From Camelus ferus (taxonomy: Eukaryota), in contig NC_045696.1 of NCBI RefSeq assembly GCF_009834535.1, forward strand, positions 43,092,001-43,156,000: a DNA stretch of 64,000 bases, read 5' to 3'. Under the pieces are notes generated by a model, which was not told the DNA's origin, did not search any database, and worked only from the letters and a program-made list of their open reading frames with translations. Within the stretch, counting starts at the first letter, position 1. Each line of letters starts with the position of its first letter. The translations under genes and the position numbers were made by a program. Below are positions 9,578-58,146 of the stretch, in pieces.

Positions 9578-12500
9578 TTAGATTCCACATATGAGCGATC
9601 TCATATGGTATTTTTCTTTTCCTTTCTGGCTTACTTCACTTAGAATGACATTCTCCAGGAGCATCCATGTTGCTGCAAATGGCATTATGTTGTCAGGTTT
9701 TATGGCTGAGTAGTATTCCATTCTATAAATATACCACTTCTTCTTTATCCAGTCACCTGTTGATGGACATTTAGGCTGTTTCCATGTTTTGGCTATTGTA
9801 AATAGTGCTGCTATGAACATTGGGGTGCAGGTGTCATCCTGAAGTAGATTTCCTTCTGGATACAGGCCCAGGAGTGGGATTCCTGGGTCATATGGTAAGT
9901 CTATTCCTAGTCTTTTGAGGAATCTCCACACTGTTTTCCATAGTGGCTGCACCAAACTGCATTCCCACCAGCAGTGTAGGAGGGTTCCCCTTTCCCCACA
10001 GCCTCTCCAGCATTTGTCGTTTGTGGATTTTTGAATGACGGCCATTCTGACTGGTGTGAGGTGATACCTCATTGTAGTTTTGATTTCCATTTCTCTGATA
10101 ACTAGTGATATTGAGCATTTTTTCATGTGCTTTTTGCTCATTTGTATGTCTTCCTTGGAGAATTGCTTGTTTAGGTCTTCTGCCCATTTTTCGATTGGGT
10201 TGTTTATTTTTTTCTTATTGAGTCATATGAGCTGCTTATATATTCTGGAGATCAAGGCTTTGTCAGTTTCACTTGCAAAAATTTTCTCCCATTCCGTAGG
10301 TTTTCTTCTTGTTTTACTTCTGGTTTCCTTTGCTGTGCAGAAGCTTGTAAGTTTCATTAGGTCCCATTTGTTTATACTTGCTTTTATTTCTTTTAGGAGA
10401 AAATTTTTGAAATGTATGTCAGATAATGTTTTGCCTATGTTTTCCTCTAGGAGGTTTATTGTATCTTGTCTTATGTTTAAGTCTTTAATCCATTTTGAGT
10501 TGATTTTTGTATATGGTGTAAGGGAGTGTTCTAGCTTCATTGTTTTACATGCTGCTGTCCAGTTTTCCCAACACCATTTGCTGAAGAGACTGTCTTTATT
10601 CCAATGTATATTCTTGCCTCCTTTGTCGAAGATGAGTTGACCAAAAGTTTGTGGGTTCATTTCTGGGCTCTCTATTCTGTTCCATTGGTCTATATGTCTG
10701 TTTTGGTACCAATACCATGCTGTCTTGATGACTGTAGCTCTATAGTATTGTCTGAAGTCTGGGAGAGTTATTCCTCCAGCCTCTTTCTTTCTCTTCAGTA
10801 AAGCTTTGGCAACTCTAGGTCTTTGATGGTTCCATATGAATTTTATTATGATTTTTTCTAGTTCTGTGAAGTATGTCCTGGGTAACTGGATAGGGATTGC
10901 ATTAAATCTGTAGATTGCCTTGGGCAGTGTGACCATTTTAACAATATTGATTCTTTCAATCCAAGAGCATGGAATATCTTTCCATTTTTTAAAGTCTTCT
11001 TTAATTTCCTTCATCAGTGGTTTATAGTTTTCTGTGTATAATTCTTTCACCTCCTTGGTTAGATTTATTCCCAGATATTTTATTACTTTGGGTGCTATTT
11101 TAAAGGGGATTGTTTCTTTACTTTCTTCTTCTGTTGATTTATCGTTAGTGTAAAGAAATGCAACTGATTTTTGAACGTTAATTTTGTAACCTGCTACCTT
11201 GCTGAATTCTTCAATCAGCTCTAGTAGCTCTTGTGTGGGCCTTTTAGGGTTTTCTATATATAGTAACATGTCATCAGCATATAATGACACTTTTACCTCT
11301 TCTTTTCCAATTTGGATCCCTTTTATTTCTTTCTCTTGCCTGACTGCTGTGGCTAGGTTTTCCAGGACTATGTTGAATAGGAGTGGTGATAGTGGGCATC
11401 CTTGTCTTGTCCCAGATTTTAGTGGGAAGCTTTTGAGTTTTTCACCGTTGAGTACTATGCTGGCTGTAGGTTTGTCATATATAGCTTTTATTATGTTGAG
11501 ATATGTTCCCTCTATACCCACTTTGGCGAGAGTTTTTATCATAAATGGGTGTTGAATTTTATCAAATGCTTTTTCTGCATCGATTGAGATGATCATGTGG
11601 TTTTTGTCCTTTCTCTTGTTGATGTGATGTATTACACTGATTGATTTGCGTATGTTGAACCAGCCTCGTGTCCCTGGGATGAACCCCACTTGGTCATGAT
11701 GTATCATCTTTTTTATGTGTTGTTGGATTCTATTTGCTAAAATTTTGGTGAGGATTTTGGCGTCTATGTTCATCAGTGATATTGGCCTATAATTCTCTTT
11801 TTTTGTAGTGTCTTTGCCTGGTTTTGGTATCAGGGTGATGGTGGCTTCATAGAATGAGTTTGGGAGTATTCCCTCCTTTTCAATCGTCTGGAAGAGTTTG
11901 AGAAGGACTGGTATGAGTTCTTTGTATGTTTGGTAGAATTCCCCGGTGAAGCCGTCCGGTCCTGGACTTTTATTTGTAGGGAGGTTTTTAATTGCTATTT
12001 CTATTTCCTTTCTAGTGATCGGATTGTTCAAGTGTTCAGATTCTTCTTGATTCAGTTTTGGTGGACAGTATGTTTCCAGAAACTTGTCCATCTCCTCTAG
12101 GTTATCCAGTTTGGTTCCATATAGTTTTTCATAATATTCTCGTATGATATTCTGTATTTCTATTTTGTTTGTTGTAATTTCTCCATTTTCCTTTCTTATT
12201 TTGCTAATTTGTGCTCTCTCTTTTTTCTTCTTTGTGAGTTTGGCCAGAGGTTTGTCGATTTTATTTACTTTTTCAAAAAACCAGCTTTTGGTTTGGTTGA
12301 TTTTTTCTATGGTCTTGTTAATCTCTATTGTATTTAATTCCTCTCTGATCTTTATTATTTCCTTCCTTCTGCTGCTTTTTGGGGCTCTTTGTTCTTCTTT
12401 TTCTAATTCATTCAGGTGGTGGGTTAAATTGTTTAGTTGAGATTGTTCTTCTTTTTTTGAGGAAGGCCTGTATCGCTATAAACTTCCCTCTTAGCACTGC

Positions 12501-13373
12501 CTTTGCTGTGTCCCATAGGTTTTGAGTGGTTGTGCTTTCATTCTCATTTGTCTCAAGGTATTTTTTAATTTCAGCTTTGATTTCCTCATTGATCCATTGT
12601 TTTTTCAATAACATATTGTTTAATCTCCATGCTTTCCTTTTTTTCTCCTTTGTTTCTCTGTTGTTGATATCCAGTTTCATGGCATTGTGGTCAGTAAAGA
12701 TGCTTGAGATAATTTCTATCTTCTTAAAATTGTTGAGGTTCCTTTTGTGCCCAAGTACATGATCGATCCTGGAAAATGTTCCATGTGCACTTGAAAAGAA
12801 TGTATATCCTATTTTTGGGGGGTGTAATGCTCTGAAAATATCCACCAAATCTAGTTTTTCTATTGTAGTATTTAATTTCTCTGTTGCCTTGTTTATTTTC
12901 TGTCTGGAAGATCTGTCTAGTGATGTTAATGCAGTGTTAAAATCTCCAACTATGATTGTATTCCCATCAATATCCCCCTTTATCACTGTTAGTAATTCTT
13001 GTATGTACTTAGGTGCTCCTATATTGGGTGCATATATATTAACGAGTGTAATATCCTCATCTTGTATCACTCCTTTAATCATTATAAAATGCCCTTCTTT
13101 ATCTTTCTCTATGGCCTTTGTTTTAAAGTCTATTTTGTCTGAAATCAGTACTGCAACACCTGCTTTTTTGGCTTTTCCATTTGCATGGAATATCCTTTTC
13201 CATCCTTTCACTCTCAATCTATATGTGACCTTCTCCCTAAAGTGGGTCTCTTGTATGCAGCCTATTGAAGGTTCTTGCTTTATTATCCAGTCTGCCACTC
13301 TGTGTCTTTTGACTGGAGCATTTAGTCCATTAACATTTACAGTAATTAATGATAGATGTGCGTTTATTGCCAT
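9578..13373 (-). pseudogene. L1 ORF2p (APE endonuclease, reverse transcriptase, CCHC), about 1264 aa if repaired
   Basis: EN motifs NVNGLN, QETH, GDFN, TDHNA; RT motifs QGCPLSP and YADD; CWRGC-x7-HCWWEC. Extra A in the run at 12452-12458 causes a frameshift. In-frame TGA at 10223-10225. Confidence 0.95.
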
Positions 13374-13591
13374 TTTGAACTTATCTTTGCAGTTGAATTG
13401 GTATATCCTCTTTGTTCCTTTCTTCTTCCTTTTGTGGTTTGGTAATTTTCCTTTGTATTATTGCGGAATTTATTTAATTTTTGTGACTCCCTTGTAAATT
13501 TTTGGCTTGTGGTTACCCTTTTTTGTAAATCTATTAACCCATTACTATAACTGTTTTTATTAAACTGATAGTAACATGATCTCAAGCCCAT
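13364..13591 (-). CDS. Putative 75-aa inter-ORF reading frame overlapping the ORF2 ATG (translation unproven)
   Basis: ATG-initiated; its stop lies within ATGGCAATAA. A homologous in-frame segment is present at 58050-58142. Confidence 0.3.
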
Positions 13592-13776
13592 CCTACTGTT
13601 AAAAAAATTTTAAAAAGAAAGAAAAAAAATTCTATATTTCCCTGCCTCCCTCTCCCACTCTCAGTGGTTTGTATGTCTTCTTTTATAATTTCATGTTTTT
13701 TTTATTTGTAATTCATGAGTTATCACGTCTCCAGTTGTGAGTTTCTCATTTCTGTAGCATCCTGCTGCTTTTCTAT

Positions 13777-14670
13777 TTAGAATAGCCCTTTCAATATTTC
13801 TTTTAGCATGGGTTTAGTGTTGCTAAACTCCTGCAGCTTTTTCTTGTCTGTGAAACTCTTTATTTCTCCTTCTATCCTCAAGGATAGCCTTGCTGGATAA
13901 AGGATCCTAGGCTGCATCTTTTTTTCATTCAGGGCTTTGACTATATCTTGCCACTCCCTTCTGGCCTGTAGTGTTTGTGTAGAGAAATCAGCTGAGAGCC
14001 TTATGGGGGTTCCCTTGTAACTTACTCTTTGCTTTTCTCTTGCTACCTTTAGAATCATTTCTTTCTCCTTGACTCTGGCCATCTTGATTATGATATGTCT
14101 TGGTGTGGGTCTATTTGGGTTCTTCCTGTTTGGGACCCTCTGAGCTTCCTGTACTTGGATATCTGATTCCTTCTTTAAGTTTGGGAAGTTTTCAGTCATG
14201 ATTTCTTCAAAAACCTTTTCAATCCCCTTTGATCTTTCTTCTCCTTCTGGGACCCCTATTGTGTGAAGATTGGGACGCTTTATATTATCCCATAGGTCCC
14301 TTATGCTATTTTCATTATTTTTTATTTGCTTATCTTGTAGCTCTTCTGAATGGGTGCTTTCTATTGCCCTGTCTTCTAAATCACTAATTCGTTCCTCTGC
14401 ATTATCTAGTCGGCTTTACACAGCTATTAGATCATTCCTCATCTCTGTCAATGAGTTTACCCATTCTACTTGGCTCTTCTTTATAGCTTCAATTTCATTT
14501 TTGACATATTTTATATCTCTAAACACTATCTCTTTTAATTCCTTCAGCAATTTGATCACTCCTTTTTTGAAATCTTGATCTAGTAGGCTATCGATGTCTA
14601 TTTCGTTGATCTTTCTTTCAGGGGATTTCTCTTGCTCTTTTAATTGGGAAAGGTTTTTCTGCTGCTTCAT
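13777..14670 (-). pseudogene. L1 ORF1p (coiled coil, RRM, CTD), 297 codons with one premature stop
   Basis: MKQQKN...ENFPNL...RPTPRHIIIK...PIRLSADFS...YPARLS. TAA at 14416-14418 where the copy near 26980 has CAA. Both halves are in the same frame. Confidence 0.95.
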
Positions 14671-16328
14671 CTTCCTCTCTGGCACTGTGGTTTATGGAGT
14701 ATCAGTTGTCTATTATGGTCCTTAAGGGTTTTATCTATCTAATGCCTATTTAGGAATAGAACTTAGGAAAAAAGAAAAGAAATAAGAGAGAAAGAATTTT
14801 AAAAGAAGGGAGAAAGAAGGTTTGAAAACAGTGTATAATAAATAATAGAAGAGCGAGTTGAAGCAGAGTATTAATCGGGTTGAGACGTCCTTTTAAAACC
14901 TTTACAAAAAAAGGGGGGTAGATGAATAGATGTATTTGAAGCCTCTGTCTAATCAATAGCAGGACATCAAAACCCAAGAGAAATAGAAATGAATTAAGAA
15001 GTAAAAATTAAGAGAGTAATAGAAAATAGAACAGGTAAAAACAGGGGGGGGGTGGTTGTCGGTGTTCTCCTGGAGTCTGTGTGCTTTTAATGTGAAGTCT
15101 TTCTGTCTTCGTCCTGTTTTGGAAGCTCAGCTTGCTGTTTTCAGAGGCCTTCCGTTGGCGCCCTCTTCTGTGCTGCTCCCAGCACCTGTTGGCAAGCAGA
15201 TCGCGCCTCCTCTCAACACTGGGTCAGGTGCAGCTCTCCTCTGCTGTGGGCGGGCGGGTCACTGCCCTTCCGGGTGCCGCAGTCAGATGTTGCAGACTGG
15301 CAAGGTAGGAGGGCGGGTCGTGCCCCCTCCCAGCACCTCGGTCAGGGGCTGTGTTCCTGCCCGAAAGGCGGGGGGCCGCTCTCCCTCTACCTGTGCTGCT
15401 GGTAGCTCCGCTGCTCTGTGCGGCTGCGCGCTCCTCCCTGGTCGGCGCTCCGCGGGTGGGCTCGGGGAAGACCGAGGGACAGCCTTGTCCCTGCTTGGAG
15501 CCAGAACCCAGCTCCTTGTTTGTCTTTGTGGAGCAAGTTCTCTGAGGGACCAGGATGGAAGGATCCTATCTGCCCCAGACTGCAGGCCAGTCTCAGTCTG
15601 GCCTTTGAGGCTGCTAAGCCCTTCGGTGCGGATGCAGGTTTCGCTCCCTGCCCCCGCCTCGAGTGCTCAGCGCAGAGGATATGGCGGCTGTGCCTGAGCC
15701 CCGCCTCTCTTCCCCCGAAAACTTTCCGCGGGTTTTCAGAGATGGGGGTGTGCACCCTTCCCCTGAGAGCACATCAACCGTGCTGTTTTATGGAGGGCCC
15801 AGGTTGTTCTGCCCTGTGCACCCACAGCTTCGGCGCGCAGCCCCTTGCGTTCCCCAGGGGCTGCCTCCGTGCAGCGACTTCCGTCCTCCTCCCGGCTTGT
15901 GCAGCCTGGCCCTGCCCGCGGCTGCAGGCCCGCATCTCATGCTGGGTGTCGTGGGGACGCTCTGTGCCCATTTAACTTAGTTCTGTCAGTCAAGGGCTGC
16001 TCTGTACAGATCCGAGCCTCGGAGGCTCCCCCTCCGTCCCGCTGGCCTCTCAGTTGGAGAGAGGAGGCCCAGTGAGCGAGCGCCAGTCCTCCTTTGCCGC
16101 TCCCTCCCCGCGGGACCCGTCCTGCGCTGCTTTGCCTTTTGTTCTTTCTTTTTTCCTTTTCTCATACCAGATTTTTGGCGTCTTTATCTTTTGAAGAGGG
16201 CGATGTTTTGTCGGAGTTCTGCAGGTGCTCTGGTTGGCTGAGTGGGTCTGTAGATGTGGGTCTTGGTGTATCTGTGGGAGAGGGTGAGCCACGAGCGTCT
16301 CTCTACTCTGCCATCTTCTCCGTCTCTC
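14671..16328 (-). promoter_or_regulatory. L1 5'UTR internal promoter, CpG-rich, with YY1-like AAGATGGC at 16310-16317
   Basis: High GC and CpG density at about 15150-16325. 5' end reads GAGAGACGGAGAAGATGGCAG. Confidence 0.8.
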
Positions 16329-25543: not shown

Positions 25544-28377
25544 TTTTTAACATTTTTAAATGAGTAATAATTTTATAATGTTGTGTCAAATTCCAGTGTA
25601 GAGCACAATTTTTCAGTTATACATGAACATACATCTATTAATTGTCACATTTTTTTTCTCTGTGAGCTACCACAAGATCTTGTATATATTTCCCTGTGCT
25701 ATACAATATAATCTTGTACATCTGTTCTACATTTTAAAATCCCAGTCTGTCCCTTCCCAACCCCCTCCCCCTTGGCAACCACAAGTTTGTATTCTATGTC
25801 TATGAGTCTGTTTCTGTTTTGTATTTTTTATTTTAAGATTCCACATATGAGTGATCTCATATGGTATTTTTCTTTCTCTTTGTGGCTTACTTCACTCCGA
25901 ATGACATTCTCCAGGAACATCCATGTTGCTACAAATGGCGTTATGTTGTCGGTTTTTATGGCTGAATAGTATTCCATTGTATAAATATACCACTTCTTTA
26001 TCCAGTCATCTGTTGATGGACATTTAGACTGTTTCCATGTCTTGGCTATTGTAAATAGTGCTGCTATGAACATCGGGGTGCAGGTGCCATTTTCAAGTAG
26101 GGTTCCTTCTGGATTTATGCGCAGGAGTGGGATTCCTGGGTCATATGGTAAGTCTATTCCTAGTCTTTTGAGGAATCTCCATACTGTTTTCCACAGTGGC
26201 TTTCCTTGCTTTCCTCTCCCACTCTTAATGATTTAGATGTCTTCTTTTACAATTTTGTGTTTATTCTTTTTGCAATTCATGACAGTTATCTCCTTTCCAG
26301 TTATGAGTTTCTCATTTTTGTAGCATCCTGCTTCTTTTCTATTTAGAGTAGACCTGTCAGTATTTCTTTTAGCATGGGTTTGGTGTTGCTAAACTCTTGT
26401 AGTTTTTGCTTGTCTGTGAAGTTCTTTATCTCTCCTTCTATTCTAAAAGATAGCCTTGCTGGATAGAGTATCCTAGGCCGCATCTTTTTTTCATTCAGGA
26501 CCTTGAATATATCTTGCCACTCCCTTCTGGCCTGTATTGTTTGTGTAGAGAAATCAGCTTAGAGCCTTACGGGGGTTCCCTTGTAGCTCACTCTTTGCTT
26601 TTCTCTTGCTGCCTTTAGGATCATTTCTTTCTCCTTGACTCTGGCCATCTTGATTATGATATGTCTTGGTGTGGGTCTGTTTGGGTTCTTCCTGTTTGGG
26701 ACCCTCTGAGCCTCCTGTACTTGGATATGATTCCTTCTTTAGGTTTGGGAAGTTTTCAGTCATGATTTCTTCAAAGACCTTTTCAATCCCCTTTGTTCTT
26801 TCTTCCCCTTCTGGAACCCCTATTATGTGTAGATTGGCATGCTTTATATATCCCATAGGTCCCTTATATTGTTTTCATTGTTTTTTATTTGTTTTTCTCT
26901 CAGTTGTTCTGATCAGGTGCTTTCTGTTGTCCTGTCTTCTAGGTCACTTATTCGTTCCTCTGCATTATCTAGCCTGCTTTGCACAGCCTTTAGGTCAGCT
27001 CTCATCTCAGCAAATGAGTTTACTAACTCTACTTAGTTCTTCTTTATAGCTTCTGTTTCACTTTTGACATATTTTATATCTCTAAACACTATTTCTTTTA
27101 GTTCCTTCAGTACTTTGATCAGTCCTTTTTTGAAATCTTGATAGTAGGCCATCAATGTCTATTTCCTTGAACGTGCTTTCAGGGGATTTCTCTTGATCTT
27201 TTAATTGGGAGTGGTTCCTGTGCTTCTTCATATTGCTCATATCTCCCTGGCACTGTGGCCAGTGGGCGGGCAGGTCACTCCCCCTCCCGATGCTGCATTC
27301 AGATACTGCACTTGAGGGGAGGCAGGTGGGCGGATCGCACCCCCTCCCAGCACCGTGGTCAGGGGCTGCATTCCTGCCAAGAAAGCGGGTGGCTGCCCAC
27401 CCTCTCCTGGCGCTGGTCACTCTGCTGCTCTGTGCAGCTGCCCTATCCGCCTCAGGTCTGCACTCTGTAGGTGGACTCGGGGAAGATGGCAGAACTGCCC
27501 CGCCCCTGCTCCGTGCCCAAACTCAGCTCCTTGTTTGTCTTGGTGGCATGAGTTCTCTGAGGTGCCAGGGCAGAAAAAGCCTATCTATCTGCCTTGGGCT
27601 ATAAACAAGTCTCAGTCCTGCCCAGGAGGTTGCGGAGCCCCCTGGTGCGGATTCAGGGCTCAGCCCTGGCCCCGCCGAGCGCTGCACACAGGAGGATATG
27701 GTGGCTGTGGTTGCGCCCTGCCTCTCTTCTCACAAGAAGCACGAGTAATGGAGCCGCGGGTCTGAGGAGACAGAGGCAACAGCACCCCTCCCCCAAGGGT
27801 ACACCAGCAGTGTTGCTTTGCTTTTTTTCACGATTTATGGGGGACCGAGGTTGTTCTGCTCTGTATCCCCTCCCAGCACAGTGCGCAGCACCCTGCAGTC
27901 GCCCGGGGCTGCCTCAGTGCAGCTGCCCTAGTCCTCCATCCAGCTCAGGCAGCCTGTCCTGGCCCCAGCTGCCGGCTCGTGTCTCAGGCTGGTTGTCGCG
28001 GGGATCCTTTGTGCCCATTTAACTTAGTTCTGTCGGTCAAGGGGTGCTTGGGGCAGATCTGAGCCTCGGAGGCTCCCCCTCCATCCCGTTGGCACCTCTG
28101 TTGGAGGGGGGAGACCTAGCGAATGAGCTCTAGTCCTCCTTTGCCGCTCCTCCCCTGCAGCACCGGTCCCGCACTGTTTTGTTTCTTCTTTTTTCTTTTT
28201 CCCTTTTCTCCTACCAGATTTTTGGCGTCTTTGTCTTTTGAAGAGGGTGATGTTCTGTTGGAGTTCAGCAGGTGCTCTGGTTGGCTGAGTGGGTCCATAG
28301 ATGTGAGTTTTGGTGTATTTGTGGGAGAGGGTGAGCTACAAGCGTCCTTCTACTCTGCCATCATGCTTCTCTCCCCC
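25544..28377 (-). mobile_element. Internally deleted L1 (5'UTR, ORF1, ORF2 tail, 3'UTR; 2.8 kb)
   Basis: TSD AACTTTTTAATT (25532-25543 / 28378-28389). Collinear with the L1 at 9238-16328 apart from deletions at about 26201 and 27258. Confidence 0.93.
26342..27240 (-). pseudogene. Frameshifted L1 ORF1
   Basis: Fragments MSNMKKHRNHSQLKDQEKSPE and IIGVPEGEERTKGIEKVFEEIMTENFPNLKKE lie in different frames. Confidence 0.88.
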
Positions 28378-55350: not shown

Positions 55351-58146
55351 GGGGAGCTTCAAGATGGCAGAATAGAAGGATGCAGAGCTCACCCTCTCCC
55401 ATGAATACATCAGAAATAATCTGCATGTGGAATTATTCTCACAGGATACCTACCAAACTTTGGCAGAAGATCTTGTACAATTAGAACTATAAGGAGAATC
55501 TTACCAAAACTCAGTAGGAGAGAAAAAGAAAAAGAAAAAGGAATTCAGGGCAGGACCTGCCCCCTGGGGAGAAGCAGCAAATGAGGAAAAACACCCTCAC
55601 CTGGGAAGCCCCCTGTCCAGCTGGGAAAGAAGGGGAGCTTTACGCCTGGAGGAGAGAGCAGCAGCCACTTGGCAGGCCGAATGCAGAGAAACCAGCACAG
55701 AGGTCTGTGCGATCCCTAGACTGAGATGTGAGCCGGGACTAGGTGCTGGAGCTCAGGCTTCAGAGAGAGGATTGGGGTTGACCACTTAGACGCAGCCACA
55801 GGGGGCTGGAGTGTGGTGCAGGCTGAGGCTGGGAATATGTGCGAAAGAGCCTGGGTCTACCATAGAAAACTCCACTGCTGATACTCAAGCTGGTGAGGGT
55901 CGCAATGCAGCCAGCCATAGCAGCCTTCTCCCCTAGCCCAGAGGGCATTGCTCACCTCACCATTGTTAAGGTGTTCTCACGGAGGGATGGGTGTAATGTT
56001 GCCCGGCCATAGCAGCCTTCTCTGCCAGCCTACAGGGCATTACTTGGCTGCCCCATTGTTAACACATTCTTGGGAAGGAATGGGTGGGGTCCAGACATAG
56101 CAGTCTTCTCCACTTGCTCTGAAGGGGCACAGTAGCTAGTGGGCAGCTCCCAAACAGAGGCAGGGCTGAAACCTGAACTCATTCCCAGGGGTCACACAAA
56201 TTTGCAGGTGGGATAGAAATTTGAGTTGAGCCCCTGGCAGCTGTGGCAGATTTACTCTGCTGGTGCCTTTGTAAGCTCAGTGCCTCTGGGACATCGAAGC
56301 AGAATATTGGTGCCTGGCAGGGGCAGATCTGGTGGTAACAGCTGGTGTGCATATGCAGAGGCAGGACTGGGGTCTGGGTTGACTCTGTAGTCCACGGTGG
56401 ATCCAGGTGTGCGACTACACACGCACTACACCAGGTCCTGATGCCTGACATCAATGGATCTGCACTCGCGACTTTGTGAACACAGAGCCTAAGGGACACC
56501 AGAGCCTGTCAGCATTACCACAGCTGAGGTGGAGACAAGGCAGCATCAAAAAAGTGTACTTTGTAAGCCCACACAATTAGTGATAGGCAATACCACAGAA
56601 CGCATTTTCTGGTGGACATCTGCTATGGAGGAATACTCAGTGGCTCTTCTCCCAGTAAAAGTACTGCAGTCCTGCCTACCACGTACCACAGCTTGCAAAC
56701 AGACCTGGAAACGTCTACTCTAACACCAGGGGAGCAGATCTGGCCCCGGACAGGGCTGTGACAAACACAGAACAAGGAGGAGGCCCTGCTCAATGTCCGG
56801 TGCAGGCTTTGGTCACCACAACACTCCCAATCAAGAGACTAACAGCCAGCACACATGGAGGAAAAAGGTGGCAGCCATCTGTACTAAAAACAGCCCTCAC
56901 AACAAAAATACTAGACACACACAGGAACGCTCCCACGTAAAAACCACCCCTAAAGACCACAGTAGGTAACTGTTACTCCTAAATTCATAAAGTCTGAGAA
57001 ATAAGAAAAATGAAGAAGCTGAGGAACTGCTCCCAATTAAAAGAGTAAGAGAAGTCCCCTGAAAGAATGAACAATGAAATAAACCTTGACAGTCTACCAG
57101 AACTTGAGTTCAAAGAGGAGACGATGTAAGTGCTGATGGGAATAAGAGAGGTTATTAACAGAAATGAAGAATACTGTAAAAAAGAAATAGAAACTGTAAA
57201 GAGGAGCCAGTAAAATCAGAAAACTCAGTTGCTAAGATAAAAGCTGAGCTAAAGGCAATTAATAGCAGATTAAATAATGCAGAAGAACAAATAAGTGATT
57301 TAGATGATAGAATAATGGAAATAACTCCATCAGAACAGCAGAAAGAAAAACAAATTTTAACAAAAGAGAGTAATATAAAGGACCTACAGGATAATATACA
57401 CATATTAGGCGTCCCAGAAGGAGAAGAAAGAGAAATGGGGAATCTAAAACATATTTAAAGAAATTATGACTGAAAACATCCCAAACCTAAAGAAGGAAAC
57501 AGATATCCAAGTACAGGAAGCACAGAGGGTCCTAAACAAGATGAACACAAACAGACCTGCACTGTGACATTTTATAATTAAGATGACCAAATGTAAAGAT
57601 AAAGAAAAGATTCTAAAGGCAGCAAAAGAAAAACAAAAAGTTACAAGGGAACCCCTATAAGGCTATCATCTGATTTCTCTGCAGAAGCACTGCAGGCCAG
57701 AAGGGAGTAGCAAGATACATTCAAACTCCTGAAAGAGAAAAACCTGCAACCTCAGATGCTCTACCCAGCAAGACTATCATTTAGAATAGGAGGAGAGATA
57801 AAGAATTTCTCAGACAAGCAAAAACTAAAAGAATACAGCAATATTAAACCTATCCAGAAAGAAATATTAAAAGGTCTTCTCCAAATAGAAAAGCAGGAAT
57901 CTACAGAGAAGAGAAAACTACAATTGGATATGTGATAACTAGAATGAACAGCAAAAGAAGAAACACAAAGATGTAAAGGAGGACATCAAAATCACAAAAT
58001 GTGGGAGAGGGAAGCAAGAAAATACAGACTTTTTTTCATTCTTTTTAGGATGTCTTTGAGCCTATATGATTACAAGTCTAAAGCAAATAGATATAGCAAT
58101 GGGTTAACATACTTGAAAAATAGGATAACCACAAGTCAAAAGGATA
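55351..58146 (+). mobile_element. Older L1 subfamily copy: 5'UTR, ORF1 and part of the spacer; 3'-truncated
   Basis: 5' end GGGGAGCTTCAAGATGGCAG (YY1-like, 55361-55368). Decayed ORF1 at about 57010-57890. Homology ends at about 58146 with no ORF2, poly(A) or TSD. Confidence 0.9.
57010..57890 (+). pseudogene. Decayed L1 ORF1
   Basis: MKKLRNCSQLKE*EKSPE..., IMTENIPNLKKETDIQVQEAQRVLNK, PIRLSSDFS; several stops and frameshifts. Confidence 0.88.

Follow-up and report, generated by a model that had tools for sequence, protein, structure and literature searches.

A stop-free reading frame in the ORF1-ORF2 spacer of a camel L1 ends on the ORF2 start codon and may form a third sense-strand cistron

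Results

Organization of the L1 element and its spacer

The DNA analyzed here, a 64,000-nt stretch of the Camelus ferus genome that we refer to as the window, carries on its minus strand a young L1 element, whose ORF1, endonuclease, and reverse transcriptase domains are recognized by Pfam and follow one another as expected. The ORF1 piece matches Transposase_22 (4.5e-22) and Tnp_22_dsRBD (4.7e-23), and the ORF2 pieces, on the same strand, match Exo_endo_phos (8.8e-21) and RVT_1 (3.2e-49). With RNA-binding domains in ORF1 and endonuclease and reverse transcriptase domains in ORF2, all on one strand, the element is a LINE-1; both of its genes are broken in this copy. A preliminary description, made from the letters of the DNA, had pointed to an ATG-initiated frame of 75 codons within a 403-nt spacer between the two genes, with a stop codon overlapping the ORF2 start. 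This arrangement is borne out, the TAA of the frame lying within the 10-nt overlap ATGGCAATAA. The features of the region are listed below, in the direction of transcription; counts refer to the young copies of the family considered in the next section.

13777..13779, minus strand: TAA stop codon of ORF1, bordering the spacer on its 5′ side (TAA in 29/30 young copies, TGA in 1/30)
13374..13776, minus strand: ORF1-ORF2 spacer (IGR), 403 nt, 46% A, bounded by the ORF1 stop at 13777 and the ORF2 start at 13373
13682..13760, minus strand: four AUG-initiated mini-ORFs of 3-8 codons, found by reading and all within the first 95 spacer nucleotides; not conserved in the older subfamilies
13648..13658, minus strand: G-rich block, an 11-nt run identical in young and old subfamilies, within a part of the spacer that has otherwise diverged by 23%
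13601..13629, minus strand: pyrimidine-rich tract directly upstream of the AUG of the spacer ORF, in contrast to the A-richness of the rest of the element; a 17-18-nt insertion is found here in the young family
13364..13591, minus strand: spacer ORF ("ORF3"), 75 codons, ATG-initiated and present in the list of open reading frames, pI 10.4, AUG context A(-3)/G(+4)
13364..13373, minus strand: ATGGCAATAA, the 10-nt overlap of the ORF2 AUG and the ORF3 TAA, with ORF2 in the -1 frame relative to ORF3
12408..13373, minus strand: N-terminal piece of ORF2 with the endonuclease domain (Exo_endo_phos), broken further on

Arithmetic on these coordinates places ORF1, the spacer ORF, and ORF2 in three different frames. 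The two other frames of the spacer ORF contain six stops each. The ORF2 frame itself is open for 28 codons upstream of the ORF2 ATG, and the 3′ part of the spacer is thus stop-poor in two frames. Both AUGs carry A at -3 and G at +4, that of the spacer ORF in 29 of 30 young copies and that of ORF2 in all 30. The conceptual product of the spacer ORF, of about 9 kDa, has 17 lysine and arginine residues versus four acidic ones. The number of upstream ATGs in the spacer is four in 26 of the 30 young copies, three in 3 copies, and five in 1, and an old L1 copy elsewhere in the window has no counterpart of the first two mini-ORF ATGs. In some older copies, and in many of the database peptides described below, the G-rich block is read as MW..., with which a longer or a separate upstream frame begins.

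Two further readings of this segment were rejected. The pyrimidine tract and the AG before the AUG could be taken for a splice acceptor; no MAGGTRAGT donor with at most one mismatch occurs on the minus strand from 13777 to 15800. Chained reinitiation from the upstream MW... mini-frame would depend on an ATG that is unconserved, being present in 7 of 24 old copies and mostly out of frame. Where it is out of frame, this mini-frame ends at a TAG 1 nt before the ATG of the spacer ORF, and it is missing from most other old copies and from the young family.

Copies of the young family in the genome

Matching the spacer against the 2.09-Gb assembly gave 1988 candidates, the best 40 of which are 96-97% identical. 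The frame is open in all 30 of the best-matching copies that were fetched, a sample that was chosen on the spacer itself and is biased accordingly; we therefore reject this intactness as a sign of retention and regard it as an artefact of picking the best spacer matches. In an unbiased sample of 39 copies, picked on the neighboring 386 nt of ORF2, the frame is kept in 31, of which 30 end as in the window and one has its last residue changed. Among the other eight copies, four have no ATG at the expected place, two have early stops, and two run into ORF2 after indels.

These figures can be set beside the decay of the two flanking genes in 30 sister copies, where ORF1 reaches 300 amino acids in 7 and the first 503 codons of ORF2 are open in 4. 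Such a rate of decay predicts, by simple arithmetic, that about 74-81% of frames of 75 codons would survive. Since 31 of 39 intact frames is in line with this prediction, the inserted copies decay neutrally, as expected, and are uninformative about selection. A further search, seeded with a 90%-identical copy in the window (26201-26764), led to an ORF2-deleted L1 derivative that lacks the frame.

Older subfamilies and retention of the open frame

A second, much older L1 copy in the window provides a more distant comparison:

57999..58146, plus strand: homologous frame in the old L1 copy, with the canonical ATG at 58050; homology ends near 58146

Homology of this copy to the young element was confirmed over 56946-58141, and its frame is longer by 17 codons when read from an in-frame ATG at 57999. 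The preliminary description had reported the sequence aggATG at 58050, with no stop up to the end of homology, and both observations hold; its hand counts (66/93 nt, or 71%; 16/31 amino acids; six identical residues with different codons) proved exact. The 71% identity of the ORF in this old-young pair compares with 76% for the upstream spacer, and the ORF is thus not better conserved than its non-coding flank.

Using the old copy and two of its relatives as seeds, we collected 64 older copies that span the frame, six of the first 30 loci having been dropped as non-spanning. Their tree has the form of a ladder that leads from a heterogeneous oldest group (O, n = 13) through groups A (n = 27) and B (n = 21) to the young family (Y), which sits at the end of a long branch; copies L047, L111, and L118 were assigned to no group. 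Searches for intermediates along the branch from B to Y, seeded with L020 and L060, returned only the known groups.

In three of the groups the majority reading has one and the same ATG and TAA with an open frame between them, the lengths being 240 nt (79 codons) in O, 234 nt (77 codons) in B, and 228 nt (75 codons) in Y, while the control frames contain 5-6 stops each in every group. The exception is group A, whose majority reading of 239 nt is not a multiple of 3 and is a weak point of the comparison. We attribute this length to a homopolymer column, because the modal length in this group is 240 nt (6/27) and several group A copies are intact at 79 codons; openness in group A is accordingly documented by single copies. 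Taken singly, 10 of the 64 decayed older copies have an open frame that reaches the canonical end; in two of these it is open only through compensating frameshifts.

The end of the frame is likewise retained. The 10-mer ATGGCAATAA is the commonest form of the overlap in O (9/13), A (17/27), and B (13/21), and it is found in 30 of 30 young copies. A stop codon close to the downstream start, as is expected of termination-reinitiation, is therefore conserved in this lineage, and part of this conservation follows from the first codons of ORF2 itself.

Two kinds of randomization were used to assess the frame. For its existence, dinucleotide shuffles of the spacer yielded an ATG-initiated ORF of at least 75 codons anywhere in 37 of 5000 cases, and one that also ended no more than 15 nt from the ORF2 ATG in 5 of 5000. 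When the 215 inner bases of the ORF were shuffled 20000 times, the frame was free of stops in 0.42% of trials, or in 0.56% when shuffling was confined to 54-nt blocks. The frame is thus unlikely by composition, arising in 0.4-0.7% of shuffles.

For its retention, the substitutions observed between groups were placed at random on sites of the same base in 20000 trials, with the frame fixed beforehand. Among the 228 aligned sites, O and Y differ at 52 and B and Y at 40. Under the 52 changes separating O from Y, start codon and open frame survive together in 0.77-0.85% of trials, and a stop-free frame survives in 1.6-2.2%; survival is 2.3-5.6% for B-Y and 18-21% for O-B. This is a test of moderate strength (p about 0.01-0.02) that is based on majority readings, that of group O coming from 13 copies with segments of 234-294 nt. 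The changes in length between groups (240, 234, and 228 nt) are all multiples of 3; the in-frame indels sit in a purine-rich, hexamer-like repeat, in which slippage would yield multiples of 3 without selection.

Relatives of the frame in metagenome databases

Among 1.84 billion representatives, a profile built from six natural peptides detected 276 related clusters at E <= 0.001, of which 45 reached E <= 1e-10. Of the best 150 of these 276 clusters, 31 end at the same stop (22 of them complete), 8 continue past it, 32 stop early, and 79 leave the frame; 16 of the 150 run on into an ORF2-like N-terminus, and in 22 the peptide is extended at its N-terminus, beginning within the conserved G-rich block. 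The complete peptides are 28-46% identical to that of the window. Ten matches that were looked up come from metagenome contigs and belong to clusters of one or two members. A word-indexed protein search found only 2 near-identical peptides, and in metagenome DNA 132 pattern matches yielded 2 loci, namely a decayed L1 copy whose spacer is homologous and a partial one. Database peptides are called ORFs, hence biased towards open frames, and are no measure of selection elsewhere. Because 276 related peptide clusters occur in metagenome contigs, we conclude that the spacer frame is probably widespread as well as old.

Divergence of the spacer ORF

The majority reading of 21 old copies was compared with the young element over the end of ORF1, the two parts of the spacer, and the start of ORF2, with the following results (total divergence; divergence at codon positions 1/2/3):

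ORF1 end: 11.9%; 7.1/5.7/22.7%
Upstream spacer: 23.2%; codon positions not applicable
Spacer ORF: 22.5%; 17.8/23.3/26.4%
ORF2 start: 9.7%; 9.2/6.6/14.2%

The spacer ORF changes at a neutral rate, its 22.5% being comparable to the 23.2% of the upstream spacer and to the 22.7% at third positions of ORF1, and it shows no codon periodicity.

Such a rate, with no codon pattern, is also what would be expected had the frame arisen by chance in an A-rich, T-poor spacer, been spared a stop so far, and served no role. The same explanation accommodates the decay of genomic copies at the predicted rate and the scarcity of stops in the ORF2 frame of the 3′ spacer, and it gains from the fact that this frame was singled out for being open. 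It must, however, accept two events that are each unlikely, namely the existence of the frame (0.4-0.7%) and its retention over 52 substitutions (0.8-2.2%), for the second of which the frame had been fixed in advance. The 5-6 stops in the other two frames of every group, and the wholeness of the frame in many divergent database peptides, also speak against chance, and we consider neutral persistence unlikely.

Alternatively, the open frame might be a by-product of a sequence that the element needs as RNA. An IRES has been predicted in the ORF2-adjacent part of 32 of 36 long vertebrate L1 spacers, as set out in PMC5381506, and shuffling the spacer of a megabat L1 was reported to lower retrotransposition 8.8-fold (PMC4072516). 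In the sequences compared here, the ORF is dotted with conserved runs of 11-16 nt, and the conserved G-rich block and pyrimidine tract lie upstream of its AUG. Against this reading, the region of the ORF diverges at the neutral rate, its predicted folding is no better than that of shuffled sequences (z = -1.42 for the spacer and z = -0.91 downstream of the junction), and Rfam gave no match at E <= 1 on either strand over 13250-13900. Moreover, the absence of stops from one frame alone would be left unexplained. An RNA element as the cause of the open frame is, on this evidence, decidedly improbable.

Absence of constraint on the encoded peptide

The preliminary description had left open whether the frame serves as a ribosome relay to ORF2 or encodes a small basic protein. 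The first of these fits the open frame, the fixing of its end on the ORF2 start, and the strong contexts of both AUGs, whereas the second is not borne out. A functional protein of about 9 kDa, such as a factor that serves the L1 particle in nucleic-acid binding or nuclear targeting, would be in keeping with the excess of basic residues, with the same general pattern in divergent database peptides, and with the precedent of primate ORF0 as a third small L1 protein (described in PMC5203782). Yet each comparison made at the level of amino acids argues against it. Nei-Gojobori ratios for the ORF frame (0.28-0.71) lie within the range of the control frames (0.28-1.39). When substitutions were placed at random with the frame required to remain open, the observed and expected numbers of amino-acid differences were 30 versus 32.7 +/- 2.5, 26 versus 26.5, and 8 versus 8.9. 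None of six spacer-ORF peptides matched a Pfam family above the cut-off, and the ESM Atlas gave no usable match for the spacer-ORF peptide. AlphaFold2, supplied with 38 aligned sequences, predicted one long helix at low confidence (mean pLDDT 61.6, pTM 0.25). In addition, the start position and the length of the frame differ among lineages, and the charge of the peptide follows from its DNA, as it is basic because the DNA is A-rich.

The codon pattern, the restrained amino-acid change, and the recognizable domain or confident fold that characterize a protein-coding gene under purifying selection are thus all lacking, and a functional basic protein is very unlikely. A dN/dS ratio near 1 had been named beforehand as an outcome that would count against the proposal; the ratios obtained do count against a protein, and they have no bearing on a relay. 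Judged from these comparisons of sequence, the openness of the frame seems to be selected and the peptide does not.

Frameshifting at the end of the frame

Programmed -1 frameshifting follows a rule in which a slippery heptamer, X XXY YYZ, lies in phase ahead of a stimulatory structure. That the frame served in older families as an N-terminal extension of ORF2p, reached by a -1 slip at TTTAAAA that lands on the ORF2 ATG codon, would agree with the -1 frame of ORF2 relative to the ORF, with an in-phase TTTAAAA ending on the A of the ORF2 ATG in 12 of 13 oldest-group copies, and with TTTAAAG at the same place in metagenome locus L121, but it is most improbable as an account of the frame, given that the young family and the majority of groups A (15/27) and B (13/21) have TTCAAAA with the frame still open and that no stable structure is predicted downstream. 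In the family of the window the heptamer is TTCAAAA and the downstream fold gives z = -0.91, neither of which conforms to the rule.

Discussion

A relay of ribosomes to ORF2

We propose that this long-spacer L1 lineage has, in its spacer ORF, a third cistron on the sense strand, for which the act of translation would matter and the product would not, and we judge the chances that this is correct to be about even. Ribosomes that have completed ORF1 would resume scanning, pass the few and variable mini-ORFs, and restart at the strong-context AUG at 13591. After translating 75 codons they would come to the UAA and terminate there, 7 nt beyond the ORF2 AUG, and a small fraction would restart on that AUG, as in termination-reinitiation. 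The frame would in this manner bear ribosomes over the last 218 nt of the 403-nt spacer and onto ORF2, where they might otherwise drop off or initiate at spurious sites. The anatomy of the spacer, the retention of an open frame whose end is fixed, and the lack of amino-acid constraint are observations; from these we infer translation of the frame and its coupling to ORF2.

A wider form of the proposal, to which we give slightly less than even weight, is that long-spacer mammalian L1 elements share an old and widespread sense-strand cistron of this kind. Selection would act on its openness and on the placement of its stop at the ORF2 AUG, and the peptide would be irrelevant. A bolder and improbable addition, for older families, would be a fusion of the frame to ORF2 by -1 slippage at TTTAAAA.

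Reinitiation after 75 codons would be expected to be inefficient (PMC5972666). According to PMC5872511, the long spacer of horse L1 has been reduced to about 50 bp in the families that are youngest, and any relay of this kind must therefore be dispensable.

The proposal addresses the question of how L1 makes scarce ORF2 protein from a bicistronic RNA. Long spacers, so far regarded as non-coding and puzzling, are described as lowering retrotransposition when assayed in cells; they nonetheless persist in bats, horse, alpaca, panda, afrotherians, and marsupials. If the relay is real, an open frame fixed at the ORF2 start would supply a concrete and testable reason for this persistence, and L1 would be functionally tricistronic in long-spacer lineages. 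The frame would then also illustrate, in a natural setting, how selection can act on translation as such and not on its product. If the frame is instead due to chance, it serves as a warning against annotating long open frames in A-rich L1 spacers as genes.

Comparison with known systems

In searches of openly accessible papers, no description of a reading frame in the L1 spacer was found. In the parts of the articles that concern it, the spacer is treated as non-coding or as a possible IRES (PMC4072516, PMC5872511, PMC5203782, PMC5381506, PMC9252281, PMC3894237, PMC4408412, PMC5972666).

Primate L1 ORF0 is likewise a third short frame of about 70 codons with no known domain (Denli et al., 2015, as cited in PMC5203782 and PMC5381506). 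As described there, ORF0 is antisense, located in the 5′ UTR, and specific to primates, whereas the spacer ORF lies on the sense strand between ORF1 and ORF2. The IRES predicted in long vertebrate L1 spacers, together with the IRES of mouse L1, concerns the same ORF2-adjacent segment and the same problem of delivering ribosomes (PMC5381506). An IRES as presented in that source needs no open frame; here, by contrast, a stop-free frame is the distinctive feature and no significant structure is predicted.

Analogs outside L1 are the TURBS-dependent systems of caliciviruses and influenza B, in which stop and restart codons also overlap and the restart follows a long upstream ORF (PMC5972666). As outlined in that article, motif 1 of TURBS, UGGGA, lies close upstream of the restart site, at a fixed distance. 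In the spacer ORF, UGGGA is absent from the last 100 nt, and the single TGGGA of the spacer, at 13653-13657, precedes the ORF2 AUG by about 280 nt.

Human L1 itself provides a precedent, its ORF2 being made by unconventional termination-reinitiation (Alisch et al., 2006, as cited in PMC4072516, PMC5381506, and PMC9252281). As in the arrangement proposed here, the RNA is bicistronic and synthesis of ORF2 depends on an upstream ORF that terminates close to the ORF2 start. In the human element as summarized in those sources, however, ORF1 itself plays this part and the spacer measures 63 nt, while in the camel element a separate frame of 75 codons bridges the second half of a 403-nt spacer and has a 10-nt overlap with the ORF2 start.

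Experimental data on a long spacer come from the megabat L1 studied by Yang et al. (2014), family 1A (lineage 1), whose spacer of 407(445) nt (Table S2, PMC4072516) is likened here to the 403-nt spacer by length and not by sequence. The same table lists long spacers in horse, alpaca, panda, elephant, hyrax, and marsupials. By the account in PMC4072516, a reconstructed megabat L1 retrotransposed about 3.3-fold less when every AUG of its spacer was changed, about 8.8-fold less when the spacer was shuffled, and about 6.9-fold less when the 3′ third alone was deleted, whereas the other truncations raised retrotransposition. By analogy, a loss upon removal of the 3′ third is what we would expect if a frame in that spacer kept its AUG and lost its stop at ORF2. 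The authors remark that the persistence of the spacer lacks an explanation, and they invoke "small ORFs within the IGR" that would help reinitiation. The relay suggested here is a sharper form of this published idea, new in detail and not in principle.

Reading frames at the ORF3/ORF2 junction

The stop codon of the spacer ORF (ORF3), the 75-codon ATG frame between ORF1 and ORF2 of the young L1, overlaps the start of ORF2, and a heptamer at this junction was read both in the window's family and in loci of the oldest subfamily group, such as L037:

13373-13379 (-), heptamer at the ORF3/ORF2 junction

The heptamer is TTTAAAA, in phase, in 12 of the 13 copies of the oldest group, and TTCAAAA in the later groups and the window's family. 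As read from the sequence, a -1 slip at the TTTAAAA of the oldest group would reach the ORF2 ATG. In two young genome copies (L150 and L159), ORF3 is joined in frame to ORF2 through small indels, and these copies may be read as natural ORF3-ORF2 fusions.

Other open frames surround the ORF2 start. The ORF2 frame itself is free of stops for 28 codons 5′ of its ATG (13374-13457, -), with no in-frame ATG, and two of the three frames therefore hold no stop in the ~85 nt at the 3′ end of the spacer. On the opposite strand, an ATG frame of 181 codons (12952-13497, +) faces the ORF2 start and the 3′ part of ORF3; such a frame is expected, given that the antisense strand is T-rich. Antisense L1 frames are reported from some mammals (PMC5203782).

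A second small frame lies upstream of ORF3 in the window's older L1 and in other old copies (L032-L060):

57999-58050 (+), small frame reading MW..., starting in a conserved G-rich block

In the window's old copy this frame is in frame with ORF3 and lengthens it by 17 codons. Its ATG is kept in 7 of 24 old copies, where it is mostly out of frame and ends at a TAG 1 nt before the ORF3 ATG. Among the best 150 database peptides, 22 carry it as an N-terminal extension.

An L1 derivative without ORF2

A further element was compared with related genome loci (L061-L080):

26201-26764 (-), one copy of an internally deleted L1 derivative

The element is no truncated L1 but belongs to an amplified derivative in which the end of ORF1, followed by the 5′-most ~180 nt of the spacer, runs straight into the C-terminal part of ORF2. 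The genome has at least 40 copies that share 95-99% identity with the one in the window. Spacer homology ends at one common point in 19 of the 20 fetched copies by BLAST, and the ORF1/spacer-to-ORF2 junction was found by reading in all 20. ORF3 is absent from this family, which is presumably non-autonomous. It is HAL1-like and lacks ORF2.
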